A DNA stretch of 37,975 nucleotides, taken from the IMG/VR virus record IMGVR_UViG_2695420398_000011; one strand, given 5' to 3'. The DNA comes from a virus (Duplodnaviria > Heunggongvirae > Uroviricota > Caudoviricetes). A model generated the notes under the pieces. It made no database searches and was not told the DNA's origin. It saw only the letters and a program-made list of their open reading frames with translations. Positions within the stretch are counted from its first letter, which is position 1. Every line of letters starts with the position of its first letter. Both the position numbers and the translations under genes were made by a program. Of the stretch, positions 1-37,060 are shown piece after piece.

Positions 1-1002
1 TTACCCTCTATTGTCAAAAGGGTTCAATTCAACTGCAGCCTCTAAATGACCTGGAGCAAAATGCGCATAACGCATAGTCATTTTTATATCGCTATGCCCC
101 AGTATTTTTTGCAACACAAGAATATTTCCTCCCCGCATCATAAAATGACTGGCAAACGTGTGACGTAGCACATGAGTTAATTGCCCATCAGGAAGCTCGA
201 TCTTCGCTCTCTTAATTGCAGCGTCAAAAGCCTCATAACATGGTGAAAATAACGCTCCTCGTTTTTTAGGAAGCATAGCCTGCAATTGAGGTGAAATCGG
301 TACAGTGCGGTTCTTCTTTCCTTTAGTTTTAACAAATGTGATTCGACCGGGCAGCACTTGAGATTGCTTTAATCCTTCAGCTTCACTCCACCGAGCACCA
401 GTCGCAAGCCCAATACGGACAACAACCCCCAAATCTTTATTCCGTGACTCATCACACGCAATCAGAAGGCGTTCAATCTCATCTACATACAGAAACGCCA
501 ATTCCTTTTCTTCCTCACGAAACTTGCGAATGCCAGTCAGGGGGTTTTCACCAGACCACTCCCCAAGGCGCTTCAGTTCGGCAAAAACAGCATGTAGATA
601 TGACTGCTCGCGATTAACGGTTGCTTCACTAAGTTTTTTCTTCCCCTTGGGATTCCATTCTCCTGATAACCTCCTTTCCCGATAAGTAGCAAACATATTT
701 TTGTCAAACTGAGAAGCAAATGGATCTCCCAGCCTGGAACAAATAGACTCAAGTTTGACTTTGCGCTCTGCACCAGAGGACAAGGTTTTACCGTACATCT
801 CAAACCAACGAGCAACCAACTCAGAAAGACGAGGACCAGAACCATCTTGAAACTCGTCTCCAACTCTACTATTCATTAAACGGCGCTCATAAGAGAGCGC
901 CTCACTTTTTGTCGCAAACTGTTTACGAATACGTTTTCCCGATGCCCCGTAAGGATAACATTCGCAAAGCCATTTACCTGATGGAATCTTACGAACCGAC
1001 AT
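1..1002 (-). CDS. int: Tyrosine recombinase / phage integrase (P2-like)
   Basis: 333-aa ORF; N-terminus (GKRIRKQF..KSEA) and C-terminal catalytic region (TGARWSEA, HVLRHTFASHF, LGHSDIKMTMRYAH) resemble P2-family integrases as recalled from memory. Confidence 0.9.
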   Translation of the reverse strand: MSVRKIPSGKWLCECYPYGASGKRIRKQFATKSEALSYERRLMNSRVGDEFQDGSGPRLSELVARWFEMYGKTLSSGAERKVKLESICSRLGDPFASQFDKNMFATYRERRLSGEWNPKGKKKLSEATVNREQSYLHAVFAELKRLGEWSGENPLTGIRKFREEEKELAFLYVDEIERLLIACDESRNKDLGVVVRIGLATGARWSEAEGLKQSQVLPGRITFVKTKGKKNRTVPISPQLQAMLPKKRGALFSPCYEAFDAAIKRAKIELPDGQLTHVLRHTFASHFMMRGGNILVLQKILGHSDIKMTMRYAHFAPGHLEAAVELNPFDNRG

Positions 1003-1007
1003 TTTAG

Positions 1008-1355
1008 TTACTTATCACATAAATCAAATGCAGCCTTAGTGACATCTCCCAGATTCTTTTTTAACCCTGGGGCGGCATCATTATCCAGCCAAAATGGATT
1101 ATTGTTATCTAACGGTAACGCACCAAATGTTTTACCTTTTATTCGAGCCAAACCTGTAAGCGCATATAACTTATTATCGTCAAAATTCATCACATAAGGA
1201 TTACCATCTAGACACTGTAACTGAACCTCATCAGTATTAAATGGCCATACCCCATTGAAACTCTCACGTTCAATATTTTTAAAAGGCATTGCGACGGCAG
1301 AAAAAGAAAACATAGATAAAAAAGTAACTAATAGTTGAACATTTTTTACTTTCAT
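1008..1355 (-). CDS. Hypothetical secreted protein (N-terminal signal peptide, two Cys)
   Basis: 115-aa ORF with hydrophobic leader LLVTFLSMFSFSAVAMP; AT-rich codon usage; tightly packed between int and the upstream ORF. Confidence 0.5.
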   Translation of the reverse strand: MKVKNVQLLVTFLSMFSFSAVAMPFKNIERESFNGVWPFNTDEVQLQCLDGNPYVMNFDDNKLYALTGLARIKGKTFGALPLDNNNPFWLDNDAAPGLKKNLGDVTKAAFDLCDK

Positions 1356-1384
1356 ACCATTACCTCAATTTAGCTCAAGTAAGA

Positions 1385-2035
1385 TTACAAATTAAAAAAC
1401 ATCCTAGAAATGGCACCACCTACCAACCCCCCTACGCAGATAAAGAATATTATTTCTTTTGGATAAAGTCGGATTAATTCTGAAGCACGAAGTCGGACTT
1501 CTGGTAAGGTCGAATTCTCTGTGTTGCTTGATACCGATTGTTGCTCTAACCACGACAATGCAGACTGCAACTGAGAACGAGTAAGATCGTTTAAACGTCC
1601 TGTACCGAAATTGATATGGCAATACCGCAGAAGTTTTTGTCGAAGTCCACAGTCTTCACTGTTACGTAGTAATAAACTTACAAGAGCCTTACAGGCATCA
1701 TGATCTTTACATCGCTCAAGCATTGCATGCAGAAAACTCTCCGCTGTTTTATATTGATTTACTGTCATATCATCAATACCAGCTACACCAATCTCCGCAT
1801 GTACTTTTTGCCAAATAATAAACGCTTCAGTATTGCTAGCTTCTGCAATAGCAGCAACCAAGCTATTTAGCTCCTTACGCTGAGCCTTAAGCAAAGGGCG
1901 ATCGTCATCATCATTATTCGAAGGGATTGCGATATTGACGGTATGAGAACCATCATATCGCCCTATCTGAATATTCTTTTCGTGAAAATCACGCCCAGCA
2001 ACGCGATTGTTTGAACCGTTTGAGTTGACGGCCAT
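1385..2035 (-). CDS. Hypothetical protein with C-terminal transmembrane anchor; N-terminal NNRVAGRDF motif shared with the repressor tail
   Basis: 216-aa ORF; C-terminal hydrophobic stretch IIFFICVGGLVGGAISRMFF; same strand as repressor and int. Confidence 0.5.
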   Translation of the reverse strand: MAVNSNGSNNRVAGRDFHEKNIQIGRYDGSHTVNIAIPSNNDDDDRPLLKAQRKELNSLVAAIAEASNTEAFIIWQKVHAEIGVAGIDDMTVNQYKTAESFLHAMLERCKDHDACKALVSLLLRNSEDCGLRQKLLRYCHINFGTGRLNDLTRSQLQSALSWLEQQSVSSNTENSTLPEVRLRASELIRLYPKEIIFFICVGGLVGGAISRMFFNL

Positions 2036-2050
2036 GTCACCTCCCTACTA

Positions 2051-2455
2051 TCACCTACCCTTAGTTTCGTTATAGTCACGCCCAGCGATACGGTTATTAC
2101 CGCCAGAAATATTTAACTCACGTCCTGATGGCTGAGTTTCCTTTTCACTGGCCGCACCTTTTAAAGCCCCGATCACCGCGTTTTTCACATCTAACGAAGC
2201 TGCTCGAAAGCGAGTAATCAACTCCTGCTCATCATCGTTATAAGTTTCAGGTGAGTGAATTCCCAACACAACATACTGAACATCAAGGCCAAAACGAGAC
2301 AGCGCTGCCAAATACGCAGCATCAGGAAAGCTATCTCCTTTCTCATATCTAAGCTGAGTTAGCTTTTTGACTCCACCAATGTCGCTCATAGCAACTTGAC
2401 TAAGTCCCAATCTTTCCCTTTCCTCACGCAACCTCTGACCAATATCATTTTTCAT
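2051..2455 (-). CDS. XRE-family helix-turn-helix transcriptional regulator; candidate immunity repressor (C/CI position)
   Basis: 134-aa ORF; N-terminal HTH (LREERERLGLSQVAMSDIGGVKKLTQLRYEKG); divergent from the early operon; followed on the same strand by int as in P2/186 lysogeny operons. Confidence 0.7.
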   Translation of the reverse strand: MKNDIGQRLREERERLGLSQVAMSDIGGVKKLTQLRYEKGDSFPDAAYLAALSRFGLDVQYVVLGIHSPETYNDDEQELITRFRAASLDVKNAVIGALKGAASEKETQPSGRELNISGGNNRIAGRDYNETKGR

Positions 2456-7923: not shown

Positions 7924-8883
7924 ATGAAAATTTGTATCGACGACGGCTCCACCAATATCAAGCTGGCATGGACTGAGAACGGCGAACGCCGCAACGCTAT
8001 CAGCCCGAACAGCTTCAAGTCGGAATGGTCTGCGCCGTTCGGTGGCACGCAGCCCGCGAACTACATGCTTGATGGCGTGCGCTATGGTTTTGATCCGGTC
8101 AGCGATCGCTTTGTCCAGACGACCGACACGCAATACCAGTACAGCGATGTGAATGTCATTGCCATTCATCACGCGCTGGTCAAATCAGGCATCACACCAC
8201 AGGAGGTGGATGTGGTTGTCACCCTGCCACTGAGCGAGTATTTCGACACAAACGCACAGCCGGACATGGCCAACATCAACCGCAAAAAAGCGAACGTTAT
8301 GCGCCCGGTGGAGTACCAGAACGGCAAAGCATTCACTATCCGTAACGTACGGGTTATGCCTGAATCTATTCCGGCTGGCTTTAAAGCACTGGCTGACATG
8401 AGTCCGTTTGAATCCCTGCTGATTGTGGATTTAGGCGGAACCACGCTGGATGTAGCAAAGGTTCAGGGACAACTGGCAGGTATCAGCCAGGTGTTTTGCG
8501 ATCCACACGTAGGCGTTTCCCTGATGGCCGATGCAGTACTGTCGGTGATGGCCACTAACGGTATGCGTACCAGTCACCACATCGCCAATACCATTATCGA
8601 ACATCGCCATGATGAAGCCTGGCTGCGCCAGCACATCCATAATGACGCGCATTACGCCAGCCTGATGGCGGTTATTCGTGAAAAGGAAGAAACACTGAAA
8701 CAACGCGTGATCCGCGCACTGGCGGGTTTTTCGGGTTACGGGCGGGTGATGGTTGTCGGTGGCGGGGCGGAGATTGTGGCACCCGCTATCCGCGAAGCCT
8801 GCGGAGTTAATGCGACTTTCATCGCGGACGGGGGGCCACAGTTTGCTCTGGTTAATGGGCTGTACGCAATGGACAAGGAGTAA
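7924..8883 (+). CDS. parM: Actin-like segregation ATPase ParM (StbA family)
   Basis: 319-aa ORF; N-terminus MKICIDDGSTNIKLAW..ISPNSFK..YSDVNVIAIHHAL closely matches plasmid R1 ParM as recalled (MLVFIDDGSTNIKLQW..). Confidence 0.9.
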   Translation: MKICIDDGSTNIKLAWTENGERRNAISPNSFKSEWSAPFGGTQPANYMLDGVRYGFDPVSDRFVQTTDTQYQYSDVNVIAIHHALVKSGITPQEVDVVVTLPLSEYFDTNAQPDMANINRKKANVMRPVEYQNGKAFTIRNVRVMPESIPAGFKALADMSPFESLLIVDLGGTTLDVAKVQGQLAGISQVFCDPHVGVSLMADAVLSVMATNGMRTSHHIANTIIEHRHDEAWLRQHIHNDAHYASLMAVIREKEETLKQRVIRALAGFSGYGRVMVVGGGAEIVAPAIREACGVNATFIADGGPQFALVNGLYAMDKE

Positions 8884-8887
8884 ACCA

Positions 8888-9199
8888 ATGACGACTCCAA
8901 CCAGACGGATAAGTTTCTATCTGAAGCCCGCCGCCGTCAAGAACGAAGGAGAAGCATGCGCCTGGCTGGACAGCCTTACACCAGAAGCCCGCAAAAGCGG
9001 CCAACGCGTGGCTTTTCTGGCCGGGCTGGCACTTCTGAAAATGAATCCGGCAGAGGCTTACCGACTAGCTGCATGGGCTGATGATGAAGCGTTATCAGTG
9101 ACACAAACCAGGACAGAACGCCCCGCATCACAGCCAGTATCAACCGCACAGATAACCAGTCAGATGGCCGGAAATATCCGGGCGTTATTTCCTGAATAA
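8888..9199 (+). CDS. parR: ParR-like centromere-binding adaptor (StbB family)
   Basis: ATG 8888 just after parM stop; ISFYLKPAAV..CAWLDSLTPEARKSGQRVAFLAGLALL and C-terminal IRALFPE parallel R1 ParR (IAFKLNPDVN..TLDSIP..AALTAGLAL..LRSLFPKE). Confidence 0.8.
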   Translation: MTTPTRRISFYLKPAAVKNEGEACAWLDSLTPEARKSGQRVAFLAGLALLKMNPAEAYRLAAWADDEALSVTQTRTERPASQPVSTAQITSQMAGNIRALFPE

Positions 9200-10798: not shown

Positions 10799-11845
10799 TC
10801 AGGATGTGGGCTGGGTATCTAACAGTGCGTAAGGGTTAAAGCGGATCACCTCTTCGCCAAGCCAGTCATTGATGTGCTTCATGGCCTCCATGACGGGCAT
10901 CAGCTCGTTAATTGCGTAAACCCGCGCGGCCTTCTCCACATCACCAAACGCACTTTTTTCACCCGGCATCGCCCCCATCAGTTGCGGCGGAACGCGGTGC
11001 GCAGCCAGCACATCATCACGGGATGCCGCCTTAACATTCATGAACTCATCCTTTGCGGTGATCTGCTGGAACGGCAAAATTTGCACCCCCTCTTTGCCCC
11101 CGTTGGGCGCATGAATGAGCACGTTTTTAAACGCACCGCCACCACGTGCACCCTGTAGCGTTTCTTTCAGGGAGTCCATGCTTTCGCGGTTTACCTGCGC
11201 TGCACCGATGTAGATGATGCACCCGGCGTGGGATCCGTTGTCGTAATACAGTTTTCTGAACATGTCCGCCGAATGAGACAGGCTGGCCGAGAGTAATGCG
11301 CCGAGATATTCCGGCATGCCGTAGATTTCCTGGTTAATGTCAGGATTCATCAGGTGGCACACTTTGCCAGGGCGAAACTGGAACGCATCCTTGCCATCCT
11401 GCACATACCACCATGATTCAAGATCGCTACCGCGTCGCATGTATTTCGCCAGGGCGTGCCGTAATTTAAGCGGTTCGCCGAGCATATTGCTTCGAAGCTC
11501 AAGGAATGCGTTACCGAACACAAACCAGTCCAGCGCCAGCGCCGAGAAATCCTGCCGGGAAAGCAGCGGGTGCGGGATGTAGCAACCGAGTAATACATTG
11601 CGCTTAAAGTAAAGCGCAGACTGATGCCAGGACGTTTGCCGGGCAGCTCTTGCCAGACCGTACCAGTCCACCGGGGTTTCATACCACCGCCCGTTATCAG
11701 CACAGTACATATTGTCCAGCAGGTCATGCCCGGTCAGGCGATAAGGACCATCAAATGTGAATGCACTGAGCGACGATTCTTTCCTGAGCGCATCAGCGAG
11801 ATCAATGCGTGAACTCATGCGCACTTTTTTATTTTTTCTGCTCAT
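10799..11845 (-). CDS. Q: Portal protein (P2 gpQ-like)
   Basis: 348-aa ORF; size, position and orientation (divergent from capsid operon, next to terminase) match P2 Q. Confidence 0.85.
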   Translation of the reverse strand: MSRKNKKVRMSSRIDLADALRKESSLSAFTFDGPYRLTGHDLLDNMYCADNGRWYETPVDWYGLARAARQTSWHQSALYFKRNVLLGCYIPHPLLSRQDFSALALDWFVFGNAFLELRSNMLGEPLKLRHALAKYMRRGSDLESWWYVQDGKDAFQFRPGKVCHLMNPDINQEIYGMPEYLGALLSASLSHSADMFRKLYYDNGSHAGCIIYIGAAQVNRESMDSLKETLQGARGGGAFKNVLIHAPNGGKEGVQILPFQQITAKDEFMNVKAASRDDVLAAHRVPPQLMGAMPGEKSAFGDVEKAARVYAINELMPVMEAMKHINDWLGEEVIRFNPYALLDTQPTS

Positions 11846-22008: not shown

Positions 22009-23835
22009 ATGAGTACCACAACACGAAAATTTAAAACCATTATCACTGATACTGGTGCCAAAAAATTAGCTCAGGCAGCCGCGCCAGATGGTAATCCTGT
22101 CCGCCTGACTCACATGGCCGTGGGCGACGGTGGCGGCACGTTGCCCACACCAGACAGTAAGCAGACCCGTCTGGTGCATGAGGTGTGGCGACATACTGTT
22201 AATCGCGTCATCCTGGACGCAACACATCAGAACCGCATTATTGCGGAGCTGGTTATTCCTCCTGAAACGGGCGGATTCTGGATCCGGGAAATTGGTGTAT
22301 TTGATGAGCACGGCGATTTAATCGCGGTGGGCAATACTGCCGAAAGTTACAAACCAACCGTTGCCGAGGGGTCCGGACGTGCACAAACATTTCGCACCAT
22401 TCTGACCGTATCCAGCACTGCCACCGTGGCGCTTACCGTGGATAACACCATGGTGATGGCCACAGTGGATTACGTGAATGACAAACTGAAAGAACATGAA
22501 CAGTCACGACGTCACCCGGACGCCTCGCTGACCGCAAAAGGCTTTGTTCAACTCAGTAGCGCCACTAACAGCACGTCTGAAGCACTGGCCGCAACGCCGA
22601 AAGCGGTCAAGACAGCCTATGACCTTGCTAACGGGAAATATACCGCTCAGGACGCCACGACGGCACGAAAAGGAATAGTCCAACTCAGTAGCGCCACTAA
22701 CAGCACGTCTGAAGCACTGGCCGCAACGCCGAAAGCGGTCAAGACAGCCTATGACCTTGCTAACGGGAAATATACCGCACAGGACGCCACGACGGCACGA
22801 AAAGGAATAGTCCAGCTCAGTAGCGTCACTAACAGTGATTCTGAAACGCTTGCCGCGACTCCGAAAGCGGTGAAAGCCGCTAATGACAATGCAAACGGGC
22901 GTGTGCCCTCTGGACGTAAGGTTAATGGCAAATCACTAGCCAATGATGTCAATGTTACATCGCAGGATATTTTTAACGACCAGAGTATTGAGATTGGTGC
23001 AAATCAGAATCTGGATAATTACAAAACACCGGGGCTGTACCATCAGCCATTGAATGCCAATACAAGCGCAGCGCTGAAATACCCGGAGAATTTTGCGGGT
23101 ACACTGGTTGTGCTTAAAAATGCCGGGATAACACAGATTTACTATGTGTATGACACATCCAGAAGCTATACCCGCAGCCAGTACTCAACGGGTGACTGGA
23201 CACCATGGACGCCACAAGATTCATTTCCGGTAGGTGCGGCGATACCGTGGCCTTCTGATTCAGTGCCTACAGGCTATACCGTTATGCAGGGGCAGACTTT
23301 TGATAAAACAGTCTACCCCCTGCTTGCAGTCGCTTATCCGTCTGGTGTGATCCCTGATATGCGTGGCTGGACGATTAAGGGCAAACCCGCCAGTGGTCGG
23401 GCCGTATTATCTCAGGAACAGGACGGCATTAAATCACACTCCCACAGTGCCAGCGCGTCCAGTACGGACTTGGGGACAAAAACCACATCATCATTTGACT
23501 ACGGCACCAAGACGTCCAGTTCATTTAACCATGGCACTAAAACCACGAATAGCGCCGGGGATCATTCACACAATATTCCTGTTGGCAACACTGGCGCTGG
23601 TAATGGTGTTTCGGCTGGTTATAACTCAGGGCTTGGCACTGGAAAAACAAGTAACGCAGGGGGGCACTCTCACACAGTAAATATTGGCGCACACACTCAT
23701 ACGGTAGGAATTGGCGCACACACACACTCCGTTGCGATAGGTTCACACGGGCATACCATCACCGTTAACGCTACGGGTAACGCAGAAAACACCGTAAAAA
23801 ACATCGCATTTAACTATATTGTGAGGCTTGCATGA
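22009..23835 (+). CDS. H: Tail fibre protein (P2 gpH-like), with internal tandem repeats and His-rich tip
   Basis: 608-aa ORF; repeated [19 protein letters not shown] units; C-terminal [35 protein letters not shown] HxH repeats typical of fibre tips. Confidence 0.85.
22540..22900 (+). repeat. Tandem 132-bp in-frame repeats within the tail fibre gene
   Basis: Copies at about 22540-22671 and 22672-22803 are near-identical, followed by a diverged partial third copy. Confidence 0.8.
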
Positions 23836-24734
23836 TTACGCTCATTCTTTCTGCACCAGTAACAGAAATGGCTGAAGCATTTAAGCAGGTATTTGCAAAT
23901 GCAGATAGTGTGAATATTGTCGGAAAGCCATTTGAAACAATCAGAGAATTTGACTGCATGGTAAGTGCGGCAAATAGTTTCGGCTTGATGGATGGTGGCG
24001 TTGATGCCGCCATTACCGCATTCTTCGGTACTCAGTTACAGTCCCGCGTTCAGAATCATATTCTTCGTGAATATCTCGGCGAACAGCCTGTAGGTTCTGC
24101 ATTTGTCATTGAAACGGGGCATAATCATCACCCCTGGCTGGTACATGCGCCAACAATGCGTGTTCCGTTGACAATTGACGGAACAGACGCTGTATATAAC
24201 GCAACCTGGGCCGCTCTGCTTGCCATCTTTCAGCACAATAAAAACGCAACGACAGACATGAAAATAAAAACAGTGGTATTCCCTGCAATGGGGGCCGGAT
24301 GTGGTCAGGTGCCGTTTGAAAGTGTTGCCCGACAGATGAAGCAGGCATGGGATAACTTTAATAAAAAAACAGAATCAATTAACTGGGAATACGCACAATC
24401 TCGCCAGTCGGCAGTATTTGGCACATATGCATACTGTCCGGGTAATTCCGTTTGCCGTTATGCGGATACTAAATATATTGGATGCGGCGATTATCGGACG
24501 TGTTGCTCTCGTTCCGGGCAACTCTGTATTAACCCTGAACATCAGGCTGATGATGTACTGATACAACATCAGGCTAATAACCGTTTTCGCCCTGGTTCGC
24601 ATATACACCGGATTAATCCAGAAAATCCCGTAGGTAATGTCACCTCTGGCGCACATAGCCACGGAAGTAGCATCGTTATTGGTACTCCTACCCATACGCT
24701 CAATAAACAATATTCTGTCTCTGATATTAAGTAG
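23832..24734 (+). CDS. Macro-domain protein with Cys/His-rich fibre-tip-like C-terminus
   Basis: 300-aa ORF, start overlaps H stop; [17 protein letters not shown] and [14 protein letters not shown] resemble macro-domain motifs (NAAN..GGGVDGAI, FPAISTG) as recalled; C-terminus [17 protein letters not shown] resembles HxH fibre tips. Confidence 0.6.
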
Positions 24735-24736
24735 AG

Positions 24737-25321
24737 GTGAACATGGATTTCAGAATGAGTGAACAATCACGGACCATAAAAATTTATAACCTGCTGGCCG
24801 GAACTAATGAATTTATTGGGGAAGGTGATGCATACATTCCACCTCATACAGGTCTGCCTGCAAACAGTACCGATATTGCACCACCAGATATTCCGGCAGG
24901 CTTCGTGGCTGTTTTCAACAGTGATGAGGCATCGTGGCATCTCGTTGAAGACCATCGGGGTAAAACGGTTTATGACGTGGCATCAGGGGACGCGTTATTT
25001 ATTTCTGAACTCGGTCCGTTACCGGAAAATGTTACCTGGTTGTCGCCGGATGGAGAGTGTCAGAAGTGGAACGGCACATCCTGGGTGAAAGATGCAGAAG
25101 CAGAAAAACTGTTTCGGGTACGGGAGGCAGAAGAAACAAAAAACAGCCTGATGCAGGTAGCCAGTGAGCATATTGCGCCACTTCAGGATGCCGTAGATTT
25201 GGATATTGCGACGGAGGAAGAGGCATCGTTACTGGCTGCATGGAAGACATATAGGGTATTGTTGAATCGTGTTGATACAACAGTAGCAGCGGATGTTGAG
25301 TGGCCAGTCGCCCCGCAATAA
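24737..25321 (+). CDS. G: Tail fibre assembly chaperone (P2 gpG/Tfa-like)
   Basis: 194-aa ORF; N-terminal region ([55 protein letters not shown]) matches enterobacterial Tfa proteins as recalled. Confidence 0.85.
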
Positions 25322-25364
25322 AAAGAAAAAGCCATCGACAGAAATATCGATGGCTTTATGTACT

Positions 25365-25970
25365 CTATTTATACAATACAACACCACTCTTTTTAGTTAT
25401 ATATGTGCAGTTTGATGGTATATCTTTATTTATAAAAGACATTGCACCTATTTTTACATTATCCCCAATTTTACGTGACAATCCAATGATGCAACAATTA
25501 GCTCCGATATCAACGTTACTACCAATTTTCACTCTTGAACCAGGCATGTCACCATCTATCTGTCCAATGGTAGTATTCTGTCGTAATACCAGATTTTCAC
25601 CCGCATCAACAGCAAAATGAACAACAATTCCAGCATGATGGGGAATTGTTAACCCTTTTCCAATATTTGCTCCCAATCCTATTTCACAACCAAATTTGTT
25701 AATTATTTTACTGTTTAACTTTTTGGCTGCTTTCTTATGTAATTTATTACCATTAATATACATTTCGTTAGCCAACCGCCACCAGAAAAGGAAATTCCGG
25801 TTACGCTGCTTTTTCTCTCTTAAAAGCCTCCAGATATCCATACGTTTCCGCCGAATTACTTCATGTTTCCAGAAGTTTTTTAAATTAGTAGAGTTCCCAA
25901 ATAAAACAAAGTGAATTGCCATTAAGTAAGACAGCACGAAAATCTCCTTAATTATTATTTCAGACCACAC
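25365..25970 (-). CDS. Hexapeptide-repeat acyltransferase (serine O-acetyltransferase / CysE-WcaB-like)
   Basis: 201-aa ORF; left-handed beta-helix repeats (IGLGANIGKG..IGSNVDIGANCCIIG..IGDNVKIGAMSFI); strongly AT-rich; at the position of P2 Z/fun. Confidence 0.7.
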   Translation of the reverse strand: MWSEIIIKEIFVLSYLMAIHFVLFGNSTNLKNFWKHEVIRRKRMDIWRLLREKKQRNRNFLFWWRLANEMYINGNKLHKKAAKKLNSKIINKFGCEIGLGANIGKGLTIPHHAGIVVHFAVDAGENLVLRQNTTIGQIDGDMPGSRVKIGSNVDIGANCCIIGLSRKIGDNVKIGAMSFINKDIPSNCTYITKKSGVVLYK

Positions 25971-33041: not shown

Positions 33042-33509
33042 TTATTGTTTAATGGCGTTTTCTATCCATGTCGCCAAATTGTTCTTGATATCGCTATAAG
33101 CGTCGTTAAAGTTAGGTTCATATACGAGTGGTTTAATTACTCGATCGCCTCGCTTAAATGTAAATTGGTCGAAAGGATTCGGTCCTTTTGTCCCATAGCC
33201 GTTACGAGGGCATTTCAGTCGATGAATATAAATACCCACCACAGCCTTACCCTCTTTCCAGGCTCTTTCGATCTCATACTTGACCCATGGGCGATTAGCC
33301 GTTTGACTCCCGATCAGTACTACTAAGCAGGATTTGCCATTTAAGCTCTGATTAATCCAATTCTTCACGCCCTGCTCAGTTCGTTTAATTTGTTCCCAAG
33401 TATTTGGGCTAACCGGTTCATCCCCCTCCAGCACTCCCATGTTACGAATCTGCTGTACCCGCATAACATCGTTATCAAAGTGAAAGCTGTAAAATACCTT
33501 ACGTTTCAT
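33042..33509 (-). CDS. thsB: Thoeris ThsB (TIR-like domain protein)
   Basis: 155 aa; KVFYSFHFDND...CLVVLIGSQTANRPWVKYEIERA...GKAVVGIYIH...KGPNPFD parallels Bacillus ThsB (RVFFSFHYQD..CVLIGSQTFNRRWVRYEI..KGPNPFD) as recalled. Confidence 0.85.
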   Translation of the reverse strand: MKRKVFYSFHFDNDVMRVQQIRNMGVLEGDEPVSPNTWEQIKRTEQGVKNWINQSLNGKSCLVVLIGSQTANRPWVKYEIERAWKEGKAVVGIYIHRLKCPRNGYGTKGPNPFDQFTFKRGDRVIKPLVYEPNFNDAYSDIKNNLATWIENAIKQ

Positions 33510-33511
33510 AT

Positions 33512-34978
33512 CTAACCTCCTAGTTTCTTTAAAATTTCTAAAACTTTCATTTCGATATTTGCCCGATTAGCAGAGAGATCTGCAAGCTGAGCAACTTCCT
33601 TTTCCAACCAAGGGTACCGGACAAAATGTTTACTTGGATCCGTCAGCATCTCGTCAGCTAGTTCCTTGGCCATATAACCAGTGACGCCAAGTGGAAGCAC
33701 GACAACCCCTGTTTCCTGAGCAATTTGAAACTCCCTTCGGACCCCATCAGCATTAACGATTCGACCATCATGGAGTTTATTCCCAAAAAGGAATATAGCG
33801 ATTCCAGAAAGACCAATCATACGCTGCCGATATTCGTCCCATAGCTCGCTCAGGGCTTTATCGTTTGATGAGTGTTGAGGGAATGGCCGCATGATAAGTT
33901 GCTCTTCTGAGTACTTATCAGGCTTAGAATAAATGGCTTCAAGAGCTCCGTTGATGACCGCACTACCAATACCCCATCCAAACCCATTGACAACTCGATA
34001 GCCATTCTTCACCAAAGATGACGAAAGTATGTGTACAAAGTTTAGTGCTTCCTGTTTGTCCCAAGCGCCATACTCTTCTGCACTACCAGATATAAATATG
34101 GTCTTCTTGAGGAAGCGACTCTCAATCTCTTTCAATATAAGTGGAATATCATCGTACTCGTTTACTAATACAGCCTGAATGCCAAAACGGAGCAAATCGC
34201 GAATATGATGTTCTTGCCTACGCTGCCTATACATAGCGCCAGCTTCATCTTCATTTCCTTGCGGCAGAGAGGGTTCCTTACGAAGAAAGCAGTAGTGTCT
34301 ACGACGATGCTTCTCCGGAACATGCAATCGGCTCAATATGTAATCAAGATTAGGATCAGTAAAACTGAAGCCAATAAATAAGAATGTCTTAGAAATCAAA
34401 TCTCCACTCAATGCTGTAACAAACCCCTCATGGGTCTTGTAGTACTGCTCATACTGAGCTTTATAAAGTATGGCGTCACCTGGCGAGCTAACATCACCAT
34501 GCATTTTGTAAACAACAGCATCTCGTTTAGGACGAGTGGAAATAAGATCATCGGTTCTGCGTTTAATATCTGCGACACGGTAGTTTTCTTTGAGACTATC
34601 TTCAATCAAAGTGTCATAGTTGGTTGTCCAATAAGTTCTAATGGGTAGTCTAGCAAGGATTTTATGGGCTTCGGAAGGTTCCGCTTGCTCCGAGAATTCC
34701 TCTAGGATTTTTCTAGCTAAACCAGTTGAGCTGTTGTTCTTGTTGACATGGTATTGTGCAACCGAAATTAAGTCGTGCTCTAGCTCAACAGAAAGGCCTA
34801 ATTCTTCAGCAATTTCACGCAGCAGTTCACTCCAATTAACGAAGCCGCTGGTTCTAGATAGGCCCGCACCAGCAAAAACGGCGGCAACCCCTTCTTCGAG
34901 ATCCTTCACATAAGTCCTGATAAAAGCTTCAACTTCAGCCGAAAACTGAACACTCATATTTTTAGACAATCCGGTCAA
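33512..34978 (-). CDS. thsA: Thoeris ThsA (N-terminal SIR2 domain, C-terminal SLOG domain)
   Basis: 488 aa; SIR2 hallmarks FAGAGLS, TTNYD, MHGD; C-terminal FISGSAEEYG...GFGWGIGSAVINGALE typical of SLOG; directly upstream of thsB on the same strand; AT-rich. Confidence 0.85.
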   Translation of the reverse strand: MTGLSKNMSVQFSAEVEAFIRTYVKDLEEGVAAVFAGAGLSRTSGFVNWSELLREIAEELGLSVELEHDLISVAQYHVNKNNSSTGLARKILEEFSEQAEPSEAHKILARLPIRTYWTTNYDTLIEDSLKENYRVADIKRRTDDLISTRPKRDAVVYKMHGDVSSPGDAILYKAQYEQYYKTHEGFVTALSGDLISKTFLFIGFSFTDPNLDYILSRLHVPEKHRRRHYCFLRKEPSLPQGNEDEAGAMYRQRRQEHHIRDLLRFGIQAVLVNEYDDIPLILKEIESRFLKKTIFISGSAEEYGAWDKQEALNFVHILSSSLVKNGYRVVNGFGWGIGSAVINGALEAIYSKPDKYSEEQLIMRPFPQHSSNDKALSELWDEYRQRMIGLSGIAIFLFGNKLHDGRIVNADGVRREFQIAQETGVVVLPLGVTGYMAKELADEMLTDPSKHFVRYPWLEKEVAQLADLSANRANIEMKVLEILKKLGG

Positions 34979-35719: not shown

Positions 35720-35956
35720 ATGTGGAAAGGCCCCGGAAAAACATCTCTGTTTAACCGAGGCCCTAACCGCATTACCTTGACAAGTGAAAGGTTAGCGCCT
35801 CTCCGGAAAAGGAGCAAGTGCTATGTCGCAAAAATCGCTTACGGCCATCACGTTCTGCGTGACGGCAATCCTCATCATCTGGATGCTGCACGGTTCGCTG
35901 TGCGAAATACGGATGAGCTTCTGGGGAGCGGAGTTTGCGGCGTTCTTACAGTGTAA
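35720..35956 (+). CDS. mok-like overlapping reading frame of the hok-like locus
   Basis: 78-aa ORF in a different frame that starts upstream of and spans the hok-like ORF, as in hok/mok/sok loci. Confidence 0.35.
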   Translation: MWKGPGKTSLFNRGPNRITLTSERLAPLRKRSKCYVAKIAYGHHVLRDGNPHHLDAARFAVRNTDELLGSGVCGVLTV

Positions 35957-35963
35957 GCAGTAA
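35823..35963 (+). CDS. Hok/Gef-family type I toxin (small membrane peptide)
   Basis: 46-aa ORF MSQKSLTAITFCVTAILIIWMLHGSLCEIRMSFWGAEFAAFLQCKQ; TM helix plus conserved SLCEI(R) and AAF motifs of Hok proteins; structured 5' leader; 3' hairpin at about 35975-35995. Confidence 0.7.
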   Translation: MSQKSLTAITFCVTAILIIWMLHGSLCEIRMSFWGAEFAAFLQCKQ

Positions 35964-36049
35964 GGAAACCGCGACGGGGGAGCAATCCCCCGTCAATCGG
36001 TTGCCAAGGTAAGGTCGATAAGGCACCCTATCTCATAGAGATGAATAAC

Positions 36050-36548: not shown

Positions 36549-36906
36549 AAAAAAGATCTATATCAAAGAGATAGAGTTATTATCAGTGCTGCAGACATCA
36601 GCATTCGAGGCAGCAGAAAAACAGTTAATCTAACGAATTTGTATTTTCTCAGGATGTTGTCAGATTAAAAAAGATAGATTAGCGCAGACACCTTTTGGCG
36701 GGTGGTAGGAGGAAAAATGAAGTTGAGTGGGAAGATCCCAGAAAAAATTTTGATTTAACCAAGGCCCTAGTTCAACATGCGAAATACAGATTAGTTGCAG
36801 GAGAGTTCTGCTTCACGCTTAGAGCTTCAACAGACGTGCACTATCATTGTTTCTGCATATCGCCACATCATCGCCACTTTACCGCCATTGCACAAAATAC
36901 AAATAC

Positions 36907-36930
36907 AAAAAAACCACCCGAAGGTGGTTT
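36907..36930 (-). terminator. Rho-independent terminator of the tRNA operon
   Basis: On the minus strand: AACCACC-TTCG-GGTGGTT followed by a T-run, immediately 3' of tRNA-Leu. Confidence 0.6.
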
Positions 36931-36973
36931 CACGACACTGCTTATTGCTTTGATTTTATTCTTATCTTTCCCA

Positions 36974-37060
36974 TGGTACCCGGAGCGGGACTTGAACCCG
37001 CACAGCGCGAACGCCGAGGGATTTTAAATCCCTTGTGTCTACCGATTCCACCATCCGGGC
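36974..37060 (-). tRNA. leuZ: tRNA-Leu (anticodon UAA)
   Basis: 87-nt sequence matching E. coli leuZ as recalled; anticodon loop TTTAAAA in tRNA sense; 3' CCA encoded. Confidence 0.9.

Follow-up and report, generated by a model that had tools for sequence, protein, structure and literature searches.

A matching terminal motif in a prophage immunity repressor and the adjacent membrane-anchored protein

Why does a phage repressor end with the same short motif with which the product of the next gene begins? The question is raised by the lysogeny region of the viral DNA IMGVR_UViG_2695420398_000011, a stretch of 37,975 nucleotides here called the window. The whole window is a complete P2-family prophage (Peduoviridae, Xuanwuvirus-like). 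The chromosome of Escherichia coli H3 matches it over its full length at 99.94%, with the insertion site adjoining yecA, and the lysogeny region is 98.6% identical to Escherichia phage 520873. This region is an array of four minus-strand genes, namely the integrase gene int (1-1002), an open reading frame (ORF) of 115 amino acids (1008-1355), an ORF of 216 amino acids (1385-2035), and the gene of a helix-turn-helix (HTH) immunity repressor (2051-2455), separated in this order by gaps of 5, 29 and 15 bp. A sequence-only reading had described this layout, and its coordinates, common strand and 5-29 bp gaps hold. It had also noticed that the extreme C-terminus of the repressor (hereafter the tail) resembles the extreme N-terminus of the 216-amino-acid protein (hereafter the head, and the whole protein the partner).

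Shared motif of tail and head

The repressor ends with ...LNISGGNNRIAGRDYNE, and the adjacent partner gene starts with MAVNSNGSNNRVAGRDFHE. In a pairwise BLASTP comparison, residues 114-130 of the repressor (LNISGGNNRIAGRDYNE; 2066-2116, minus strand) and residues 3-19 of the partner (VNSNGSNNRVAGRDFHE; 1979-2029, minus strand) were aligned without gaps, 10 of the 17 positions being identical and 15 of the 17 similar (E = 3e-5). The best 11-residue window has a BLOSUM62 score of 50, while the scores from 5000 shuffles of both proteins averaged 23 and peaked at 39, so that the observed score was reached in 0/5000. Thus, the resemblance is confirmed and lies far beyond chance. The cognate pair of E. 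coli has NNRIAGRDYNE in the tail and NNRVAGRDFHE in the head, where the motif is followed by a second, weaker pseudo-repeat (KNIQIGRYDGSHTVNIAIP). The motif is found only in the repressor and the partner, as no third real ORF in the window bears it.

Is the motif maintained as DNA or as protein? The two copies lie about 90 bp apart. Their 13 core codons have 12 nucleotide differences, distributed 3/2/7 over the three codon positions, so the earlier remark that the differences fall mostly at third positions holds (7 of 12). The tail consensus IN[VI]SG.GNR[VI]AGRD[YF][NH]E.KK is kept in about 50 repressor homologues (from Klebsiella, Salmonella, Yersinia, Serratia, Pectobacterium and others), and the head consensus M.VNS.G..NR.[AS]GRD[FY].E is kept in 120 of the 120 listed homologues of the partner. 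Both motifs are kept within their families down to about 50-57% identity, while distant repressor homologues carry other tails. The protein-level constraint proposed by the sequence-only reading is thereby borne out. Across 25 tail-head pairs, the mean identity of the motif segments is 0.56 for amino acids and 0.60 for nucleotides. A DNA or RNA repeat, or a recent gene conversion, was considered and rejected, since it predicts nearly identical DNA and the observed nucleotide identity is about 60%. At the 221 positions where tail and head have the same residue, the same codon is used in 103 cases, compared with about 81 expected from pooled codon usage.

Does the head follow the tail where the tail is different? 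I performed a locus scan with the repressor alignment against species-representative genomes, which yielded 80 loci. The gene downstream of the repressor was picked by position alone, and the score was the best ungapped match between tail and head. At 41 non-redundant genome loci, the mean score of cognate pairs was 32.1 and that of non-cognate pairs was 21.1, and none of 20000 permutations reached the observed sum. In a stricter subset, limited to 31 loci where both the tail and the head also match at least one non-cognate partner, the scores were 36.5 and 22.4 (0/100000 permutations), and the mean rank of the cognate head was 6.9 as compared with 16 expected. An independent set of IMG/VR viral contigs (17 non-redundant pairs, no overlap with the first set) gave 46.2 and 27.7 (0/100000). 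The tail and the head of such pairs are, respectively, QIFNGDISGQFAGNQIIN and QEFNGTAQGQFSSRDIIN in Pectobacterium (also written FNGDISGQFAGNQIIN and FNGTAQGQFSSRDIIN), GQIAGGNIY and EQIAGRDIY in Gilliamella, TVDYGNAQIGQASAGDIVN and TVSFGGAQIDQAAAGDINN in Jeongeupia (also written GNAQIGQASAGDIVN and GGAQIDQAAAGDINN), GSVQIGHIGGDYN and GGIQVGSVGGDLT in Comamonas, ISVTGDGNRTAGRDFHE and IEVTGSNNIVAGRDFIE in phage B3, and MVASGSGITQVGSRV and TMSASGFGIIQVAGDL in phage KS10. Tail and head evolve together, lineage by lineage. The higher scores of cognate pairs argue against independent divergence after one old duplication, which predicts equal scores. Judged from sequence, a functional link between the repressor tail and the head of the membrane protein is strongly supported.

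The two-gene cassette and its proteins

The repressor (134 amino acids; 2051-2455, minus strand) was assigned by Pfam HTH_31/HTH_3, PHROG repressor families, PDB profile matches and an AlphaFold2 (AF2) model. It has an XRE-type HTH domain at residues 5-64, two more helices at 74-103, and a disordered C-terminal tail at 105-134. The predicted local distance difference test score (pLDDT) of the model is above 90 at residues 10-60 and below 50 at residues 105-134. The protein is related to P22 C2, as seen in the PDB profile matches, and to DicA/RstR-type repressors. A tail-less homologue, RepC of the beetrevirus Fc02, is known to confer immunity on its own, and its gene is co-transcribed in lysogens with a downstream lipoprotein gene, e4, whose product has no head. 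The tail is probably not a core oligomerisation element, because this tail-less homologue works as a repressor alone. By analogy with Fc02, the genes downstream of such repressors may be co-transcribed in lysogens. The repc-e4 pair was also considered as direct experimental support for the present cassette and was rejected in this role, since RepC lacks the tail and e4 lacks the head; it serves as a negative control instead.

The partner (216 amino acids; 1385-2035, minus strand; phrog_5825, E = 7e-101; NCBIfam Flk, E = 4e-16; PF27202 Flk_N; AF2) consists of a disordered head at residues 1-40, a Flk_N helical domain at about 46-173, and a C-terminal membrane anchor at 192-215. The Flk_N domain (residues 46-173; 1517-1900, minus strand) is all-helical in a confident AF2 model, and its first three-helix bundle resembles the C-terminal domain of Red-beta, the C-terminus of the single-strand annealing protein Sak, and NinB. 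The transmembrane (TM) anchor (1391-1462, minus strand) is predicted both by Kyte-Doolittle hydropathy, which places a hydrophobic helix at residues 195-213, and by AF2, which places a helix at 192-215; these predictions support the C-terminal anchor of the sequence-only reading.

Is the partner Flk itself? Flk is known as a tail-anchored protein that inhibits the flagellar secretion-specificity switch (type III). This identity was rejected, since the partner scores 59 bits against a cutoff of 353 for NCBIfam Flk (PRK10715 equivalog) and has a single Flk_N stretch instead of the two-repeat architecture of about 333 residues. In an exhaustive search, only 92 cluster representatives matched, and they fall into two groups: a short phage type with the head motif, and a long two-repeat Flk of 330-416 residues that starts with MQP[LV]SG and has no head. 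According to precomputed assignments, PF27202 is present on nearly all listed homologues of the partner and on the partners of Mu-like prophages. The sequence-only reading had asked whether homologues of the partner keep the shared motif; they do, and bona fide Flk proteins lack the head.

The partners of other loci are diverse. In a MAFFT alignment, the single motif of Mu-like partners falls on the second repeat of the E. coli partner head. The head persists where the partner has no Flk_N; such partners include proteins of 140-306 residues with one or two TM segments or with a TM segment and a periplasmic domain, and a Pfam scan of ten partners without a clear Flk_N found no significant family. 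Hydrophobic anchors were found in about 24 of 28 partners, 19 lying above the hydropathy cut-off of 1.6 and 5 having shorter C-terminal hydrophobic ends recognised by eye. What the partners have in common is the head, usually together with a membrane anchor, and the body varies.

How widely is the pair distributed? The same four genes are present in 506 of 5426 complete E. coli genomes (about 9%), including O157:H7 strains such as ATCC 43894. On the contigs of distant repressor homologues, which are Mu-like transposable prophages, the next gene encodes a Flk_N protein with a C-terminal anchor. Neighbouring genes distinguish two classes of loci, a P2-like class with Cox and Arc upstream and a P2-type integrase downstream, and a Mu-like class with Ner and a MuA-type transposase upstream. 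Taken together, the two classes span prophages of Gamma- and Betaproteobacteria. Cultured phages that carry the cassette are Pseudomonas phages B3 (ORF18/ORF20) and Ps59, Burkholderia phage BcepMu (gp17/gp18) and phage KS10 (gp13/gp12). KS10 gp12 was published as having 'no significant match', and B3 ORF20, BcepMu gp18 and KS10 gp12 are now annotated as hypothetical or membrane proteins. The only component common to the P2-like and Mu-like carriers is the two-gene cassette itself.

These distributions bear on the view of the sequence-only reading that both genes between the repressor and int are cargo. For the 216-amino-acid gene this was not borne out, as the repressor gene accompanies it, in a two-gene cassette, in P2-like and Mu-like backbones that are otherwise unrelated. 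When the int-repressor junctions of related prophages were compared, repressor and partner were found to be the constant pair and the int-proximal slot to be variable. Tail and partner are present or absent together; the tail-less homologues without a head-bearing neighbour are Pseudomonas chromosomal copies (beside a response regulator) and Fc02 RepC. From their spacing, the two genes appear to be tightly or translationally coupled; they overlap at an ATGA in many Mu-like loci and are 15 bp apart here. In the window, the two genes share one reading frame; three consecutive in-frame stop codons (TGA TAG TAG, within 2036-2053) end the repressor gene, and directly after them comes a strong Shine-Dalgarno sequence, GGGAGG, which lies 5 nt upstream of the ATG of the partner gene.

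Some individual loci deserve mention. In a Mu-like prophage of an Oleiphilus metagenome-assembled genome (MAG; locus L019, 4338-4637), the head-bearing partner is succeeded by another small membrane ORF that also has a head motif, VKGDRNIVAGGDIY, so that the repressor tail of this prophage, VNGDGNRVAGRDYH, may have two partners. In Escherichia phage 520873 (NC_049344; locus L001, 1039-3081), int is split into two coding sequences, the partner appears as four tblastn pieces, and the partner and DUF2511 genes are both unannotated. The fragmentation is probably due to indel errors in that assembly. It is partly because these genes are fragmented and unannotated in NC_049344 that the cassette is invisible in phage databases. 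In the literature, no link of Flk_N proteins, B3 ORF20, BcepMu gp18 or KS10 gp12 to a repressor was found, with incomplete coverage that leaves most subscription journals outside. The cassette thus has no earlier description in the searchable literature; such absence is not proof, and a prior description is possible.

In O157:H7 strains, the element is the P2-like prophage known as Sp13. Sp13 is inducible with mitomycin C and has a repressor without a peptidase motif, and the mechanism was published as 'yet to be elucidated'. I infer that the Sp13 repressor is the repressor of this cassette. The E. coli ATCC 43894 prophage (locus L088) encodes at 11600-11830 a P4 epsilon-like 'derepression protein', and the H3 copy has only a partial ash-family pseudogene there. 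The O157 and H3 copies may differ in induction.

Neighbouring genes of the lysogeny region and the prophage

The P2-type tyrosine integrase (333 amino acids; 1-1002, minus strand; Pfam Int_N and Phage_integrase) is encoded by the last gene of the same-strand array. On the other side of the repressor gene, a divergent control region (2456-2530) separates it from the early operon and contains a sigma-70-like promoter at 2465-2493 on the plus strand. From its position, I infer that it is the operator or switch region. The early (lytic) operon starts at 2531-2957 on the plus strand, divergent from the repressor, with an Arc-like ribbon-helix-helix gene (2531-2737; phrog_3431, E = 1e-28) and a Cox-like excisionase/repressor gene (2754-2957; phrog_575, E = 1e-27). 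The Arc-like ORF ahead of Cox is unannotated in the RefSeq records of H3 and ATCC 43894, where an ORF of 45 amino acids on the opposite strand is called instead. The region has the P2-family lysogenic layout of the K139 type, with the repressor, two ORFs and int on one strand, divergent from cox. No terminator-like site was found at 900-2800 of the window, hence none from the repressor to int, and no internal promoter was found between the repressor and partner genes. Together with the tight spacing and the annotated cI-orf2-glo-int lysogenic operon of K139, this is compatible with the co-transcription suggested by the sequence-only reading.

The cargo slot (1008-1355, minus strand) holds the gene of the 115-amino-acid protein, a putative secreted DUF2511/YebY-like protein (phrog_2950). 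Its Pfam DUF2511 score is 25.7 bits against a cutoff of 21, and it matches YebY (7n0j) with E = 0.009 and both cysteines aligned. The N-terminus, MKVKNVQLLVTFLSMFSFSAVA, is signal-peptide-like as read directly from the sequence, which, together with the DUF2511/YebY match, favours secretion as the earlier reading proposed. The description as cargo is right for this gene alone, since the content of the slot varies among related loci and includes lipoproteins, other secreted proteins and a homologue of K139 orf2. The latter was found in the P2-like prophage of an Enterobacter MAG (locus L007, 4559-5434), where the slot between the partner and int holds a gene for a BRCT-domain protein 33% identical to the K139 protein (E = 3e-51), which indicates that the slot swaps genes across P2-family phages of different hosts. 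The DUF2511 protein is a separate and exchangeable secreted cargo.

Elsewhere in the prophage, ParM-like and partition/stability genes lie directly after the replication endonuclease gene (7924-9199, plus strand; H3 annotation); a plasmid-type segregation module is unusual in an integrating phage. At about 23830-25940 (H3 RefSeq, mapped within about 3 nt), a macro-domain protein gene lies directly after the tail-fibre gene, and the tail-fibre assembly gene is followed, on the other strand, by a serine acetyltransferase gene. PADLOC detected a type I Thoeris pair at 33042-34957 on the minus strand, in the hotspot from the tail genes to ogr where P2 phages usually carry cargo, with ThsB (TIR; 33042-33509, E = 3e-70) and ThsA (SIR2; 33512-34957, E = 6e-203). 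A Hok/Gef family toxin gene is annotated in H3 just after ogr, near the right prophage end (about 35825-35965). Finally, 124 bp at 36905-37028 are identical to the H3 chromosome sequence just left of int, outside the window; they probably represent the att duplication that marks the right end of the prophage, and they overlap the tRNA-Leu gene in a Leu-Cys-Gly tRNA cluster.

Possible meaning of the tail-head match and comparison with known systems

What may the match do? On about even confidence, I propose that a homotypic contact between tail and head ties the repressor to a membrane-anchored regulator. The repressor would present its disordered C-terminal tail of about 30 residues, and the partner would present a matching disordered N-terminal head on a variable body with, mostly, a membrane anchor. 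Tail and head would pair homotypically by in-register beta pairing, as the similarity lies at the same aligned positions; a complementary interface gives no reason for look-alike sides. This contact would tether the repressor tail to a protein anchored on the cytoplasmic side of the inner membrane. The partner might then act as an anchored sink or sensor that sequesters or aggregates the repressor and sets or trips the lysogeny switch through the level of free repressor. The DNA-binding output and the head would be constant, and the variable partner bodies would bring different inputs into the one output. This might provide an induction route for repressors that have no RecA-cleavable domain.

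Several points weigh against this proposal. Four tail-bearing repressors (L021, L032, L033 and L036) have no recognisable head-bearing neighbour, and four partners have no clear membrane anchor. The excess of identical codons is small, yet not zero, and leaves some room for occasional gene conversion. A third, co-varying phage protein that is fitted by both motifs predicts co-variation equally well. In addition, making a repressor and its own antagonist constitutively in a 1:1 ratio has no obvious benefit, so the direction of control could be reversed.

Such reverse control is the main rival and seems unlikely. In it, the membrane protein would be an effector (for superinfection exclusion, abortive infection, toxicity or help in lysis) that the repressor tail keeps inactive or switches on, so that effector activity reflects the state of the repressor; the repressor would be the sensor, in a toxin-antitoxin-like or amyloid-signalling-like arrangement. 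In type II toxin-antitoxin systems, the gene of an HTH protein is usually coupled tightly to the gene downstream of it, and a similar layout with overlaps is seen in the Mu-like loci. The effectors of known amyloid-signalling pairs act on membranes and most partners here are membrane proteins; also, genes adjacent to repressors often confer exclusion, such as K139 glo and Fc02 olg1. On the other hand, in the known amyloid pairs the effector bears the C-terminal motif and the sensor bears the N-terminal one, while here it is the repressor that has the C-terminal motif, and the diverse partner bodies (Flk_N tail-anchored, two-TM, or TM with a periplasmic domain) look like variable inputs, not one killing domain. 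PADLOC gave no match for the 216-amino-acid or the 115-amino-acid protein; for the partner this speaks against an effector, and the defence-system reading, mentioned as an alternative in the earlier note, was rejected for both proteins on the same result.

A stronger form of the homotypic contact, which I regard as unlikely, is that tail and head are true amyloid-type (prion-like) motifs; the clustered partner would template the tail into a cross-beta assembly, and the repressor would leave its operators cooperatively and irreversibly. Bacterial amyloid signalling sequences have about 25 residues, are rich in Q/N/G/V/I and poor in K/P/L, have conserved G/N/Q positions and a hydrophobic pattern, and sometimes form pseudo-repeats; in amyloid-signalling pairs, one protein ends with the motif and the product of the adjacent gene begins with it. 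The same layout is found here, with the same short motif at the C-terminus of gene 1 and at the N-terminus of gene 2. The composition is also similar apart from I. Measured against the remainder of these proteins, G (2.7-fold), N (3.4-fold), Q (1.9-fold) and V (1.7-fold) are over-represented in the motif and L (0.10-fold), K (0.58-fold) and P (0.54-fold) are under-represented, while I is not enriched. The matched segments are somewhat short, mostly 14-19 residues and thus below the approximately 25 of amyloid-signalling sequences. Tail and head are both disordered in AF2 monomer models, with no helix predicted. The receptor and effector types of the known pairs (NLR/STAND or Agp-type with Bell/HeLo, TIR, CHAT and others) are absent; instead, there is an XRE HTH repressor with small membrane proteins, and the domain searches of repressors and partners gave no matches to NACHT, NB-ARC or Bell. 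Membership in the amyloid-signalling family is not established by these sequence features. If the amyloid reading is true, this would be the first case of amyloid signalling on a transcription factor and in a phage lysis-lysogeny decision, and it would explain the induction of RecA-insensitive repressors such as that of O157 Sp13.

It is quite improbable that a common third factor (a protease or adaptor for which the segments are degrons, a chaperone, or a phage antirepressor) recognises both tail and head, with the head competing with the tail or sharing its fate. Disordered protein termini are typical degrons, and ClpXP controls the Mu repressor via its C-terminus; moreover, Sp13 carries the cassette, is mitomycin-inducible by an unexplained route and encodes the P4 epsilon-like derepression protein. 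However, a conserved host factor would not require lineage-specific co-variation within pairs, the cassette is the sole component common to P2-like and Mu-like carriers, and the window has no third ORF with the motif. Very improbable indeed is a functionless similarity left by local duplication or repeated gene conversion, with the partner acting, like Flk and independently of the repressor, on a host target such as the flagellar export gate: although it has a true Flk_N domain as in the tail-anchored flagellar type III switch regulator, the copies are close together and there is a slight identical-codon excess, the nucleotide identity is about 0.6 with differences concentrated at third positions, more than 40 lineages keep the motif, some of them with partners that have no Flk_N, bona fide Flk lacks the head, and tail and partner are lost together.

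If the interaction of tail and head is true, it would be a widespread and so far unnoticed layer of control on temperate-phage repressors, reaching much of the BcepMu/B3-type Mu-like phages (of Pseudomonas, Burkholderia, Bordetella, Aeromonas, Gilliamella and others) as well as the E. coli P2-like prophage. It would give a role to the phage-type Flk_N proteins, B3 ORF20, BcepMu gp18 and KS10 gp12, and would extend the principle of matching terminal motifs, known from NLR/cell-death amyloid signalling and Bab/Agp, to gene regulation. The cassette is also a testable candidate for the mitomycin C induction of Sp13 without a peptidase domain. The pair-specific motifs could be usable as orthogonal, swappable interaction tags.

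How does the cassette compare with known systems? Vibrio phage K139, also of the P2 family, has two same-strand genes between the repressor and int that are transcribed from the lysogenic promoter (lysogenic operon cI-orf2-glo-int), and the product of its int-proximal gene, Glo, is a periplasmic exclusion protein. In contrast, its cI is S24-type without the tail motif, orf2 has no head motif, and there is no Flk_N domain. K139 was thus rejected as a homologous precedent, since only the gene order is the same, and is an analogue of the arrangement. Flk shares with the partner the Flk_N helical domain, one C-terminal membrane anchor and the location of its bulk in the cytoplasm, but has 330-416 residues, two Flk_N stretches and no head motif; the phage gene lies beside a repressor, not at the flk locus.

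In membrane-anchored anti-sigma factors and in the membrane sequestration of transcription factors (RseA/sigma-E and PtsG/Mlc), an anchored partner keeps a DNA-binding regulator at the inner membrane. The proposed docking is analogous in that a regulator would be held there by a co-encoded anchored partner able to respond to a signal; however, these systems use complementary folded interfaces without look-alike terminal motifs, and none controls a phage repressor.

In the antirepressor systems SinI/SinR and AimX/AimC, the oligomerisation surface of the repressor is occupied by a small neighbour. In both, a protein encoded beside an XRE-type repressor engages its C-terminal segment (SinI mimics it, AimX binds it), and the sequence of this neighbour-encoded antagonist varies with the repressor C-terminus. 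The analogy to SinR/SinI drawn by the sequence-only reading stands in its logic, as the product of the adjacent gene reproduces part of the repressor, and the head appears homologous to the tail. It does not stand in detail. The known systems use a folded helical oligomerisation domain and a small, soluble, separately regulated antagonist; here, the predictions give a disordered tail with beta propensity and no helical hook, and Fc02 RepC dispenses with this tail, while the 216-amino-acid partner is probably membrane-anchored and, from the tight or translational coupling of the genes, co-expressed with the repressor.

In design, the cassette resembles the amyloid-signalling pairs, namely fungal HET-s/NWD2, the bacterial BASS1-10 Bell/NLR pairs and Bab/Agp (BASS11), the last of which is an abortive-infection system in E. 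coli prophage regions. They have a pair-specific terminal motif of 15-25 residues in adjacent genes, which is G/N/Q/V-rich and L/K/P-poor, disordered outside the assembly, and pseudo-repeated in some members. They differ in joining an NLR/STAND or TPR sensor to a Bell/HeLo-type death domain, where the present cassette joins an immunity repressor to a membrane-anchored protein. Also unlike them, the cassette is carried by unicellular Proteobacteria and their phages. The searchable papers on amyloid signalling make no mention of HTH proteins, repressors or the lysogeny switch of prophages. Look-alike terminal motifs in adjacent genes and mimicry by antirepressors are thus both known; what is new is the setting, in which a phage immunity repressor is paired with a membrane-anchored partner.

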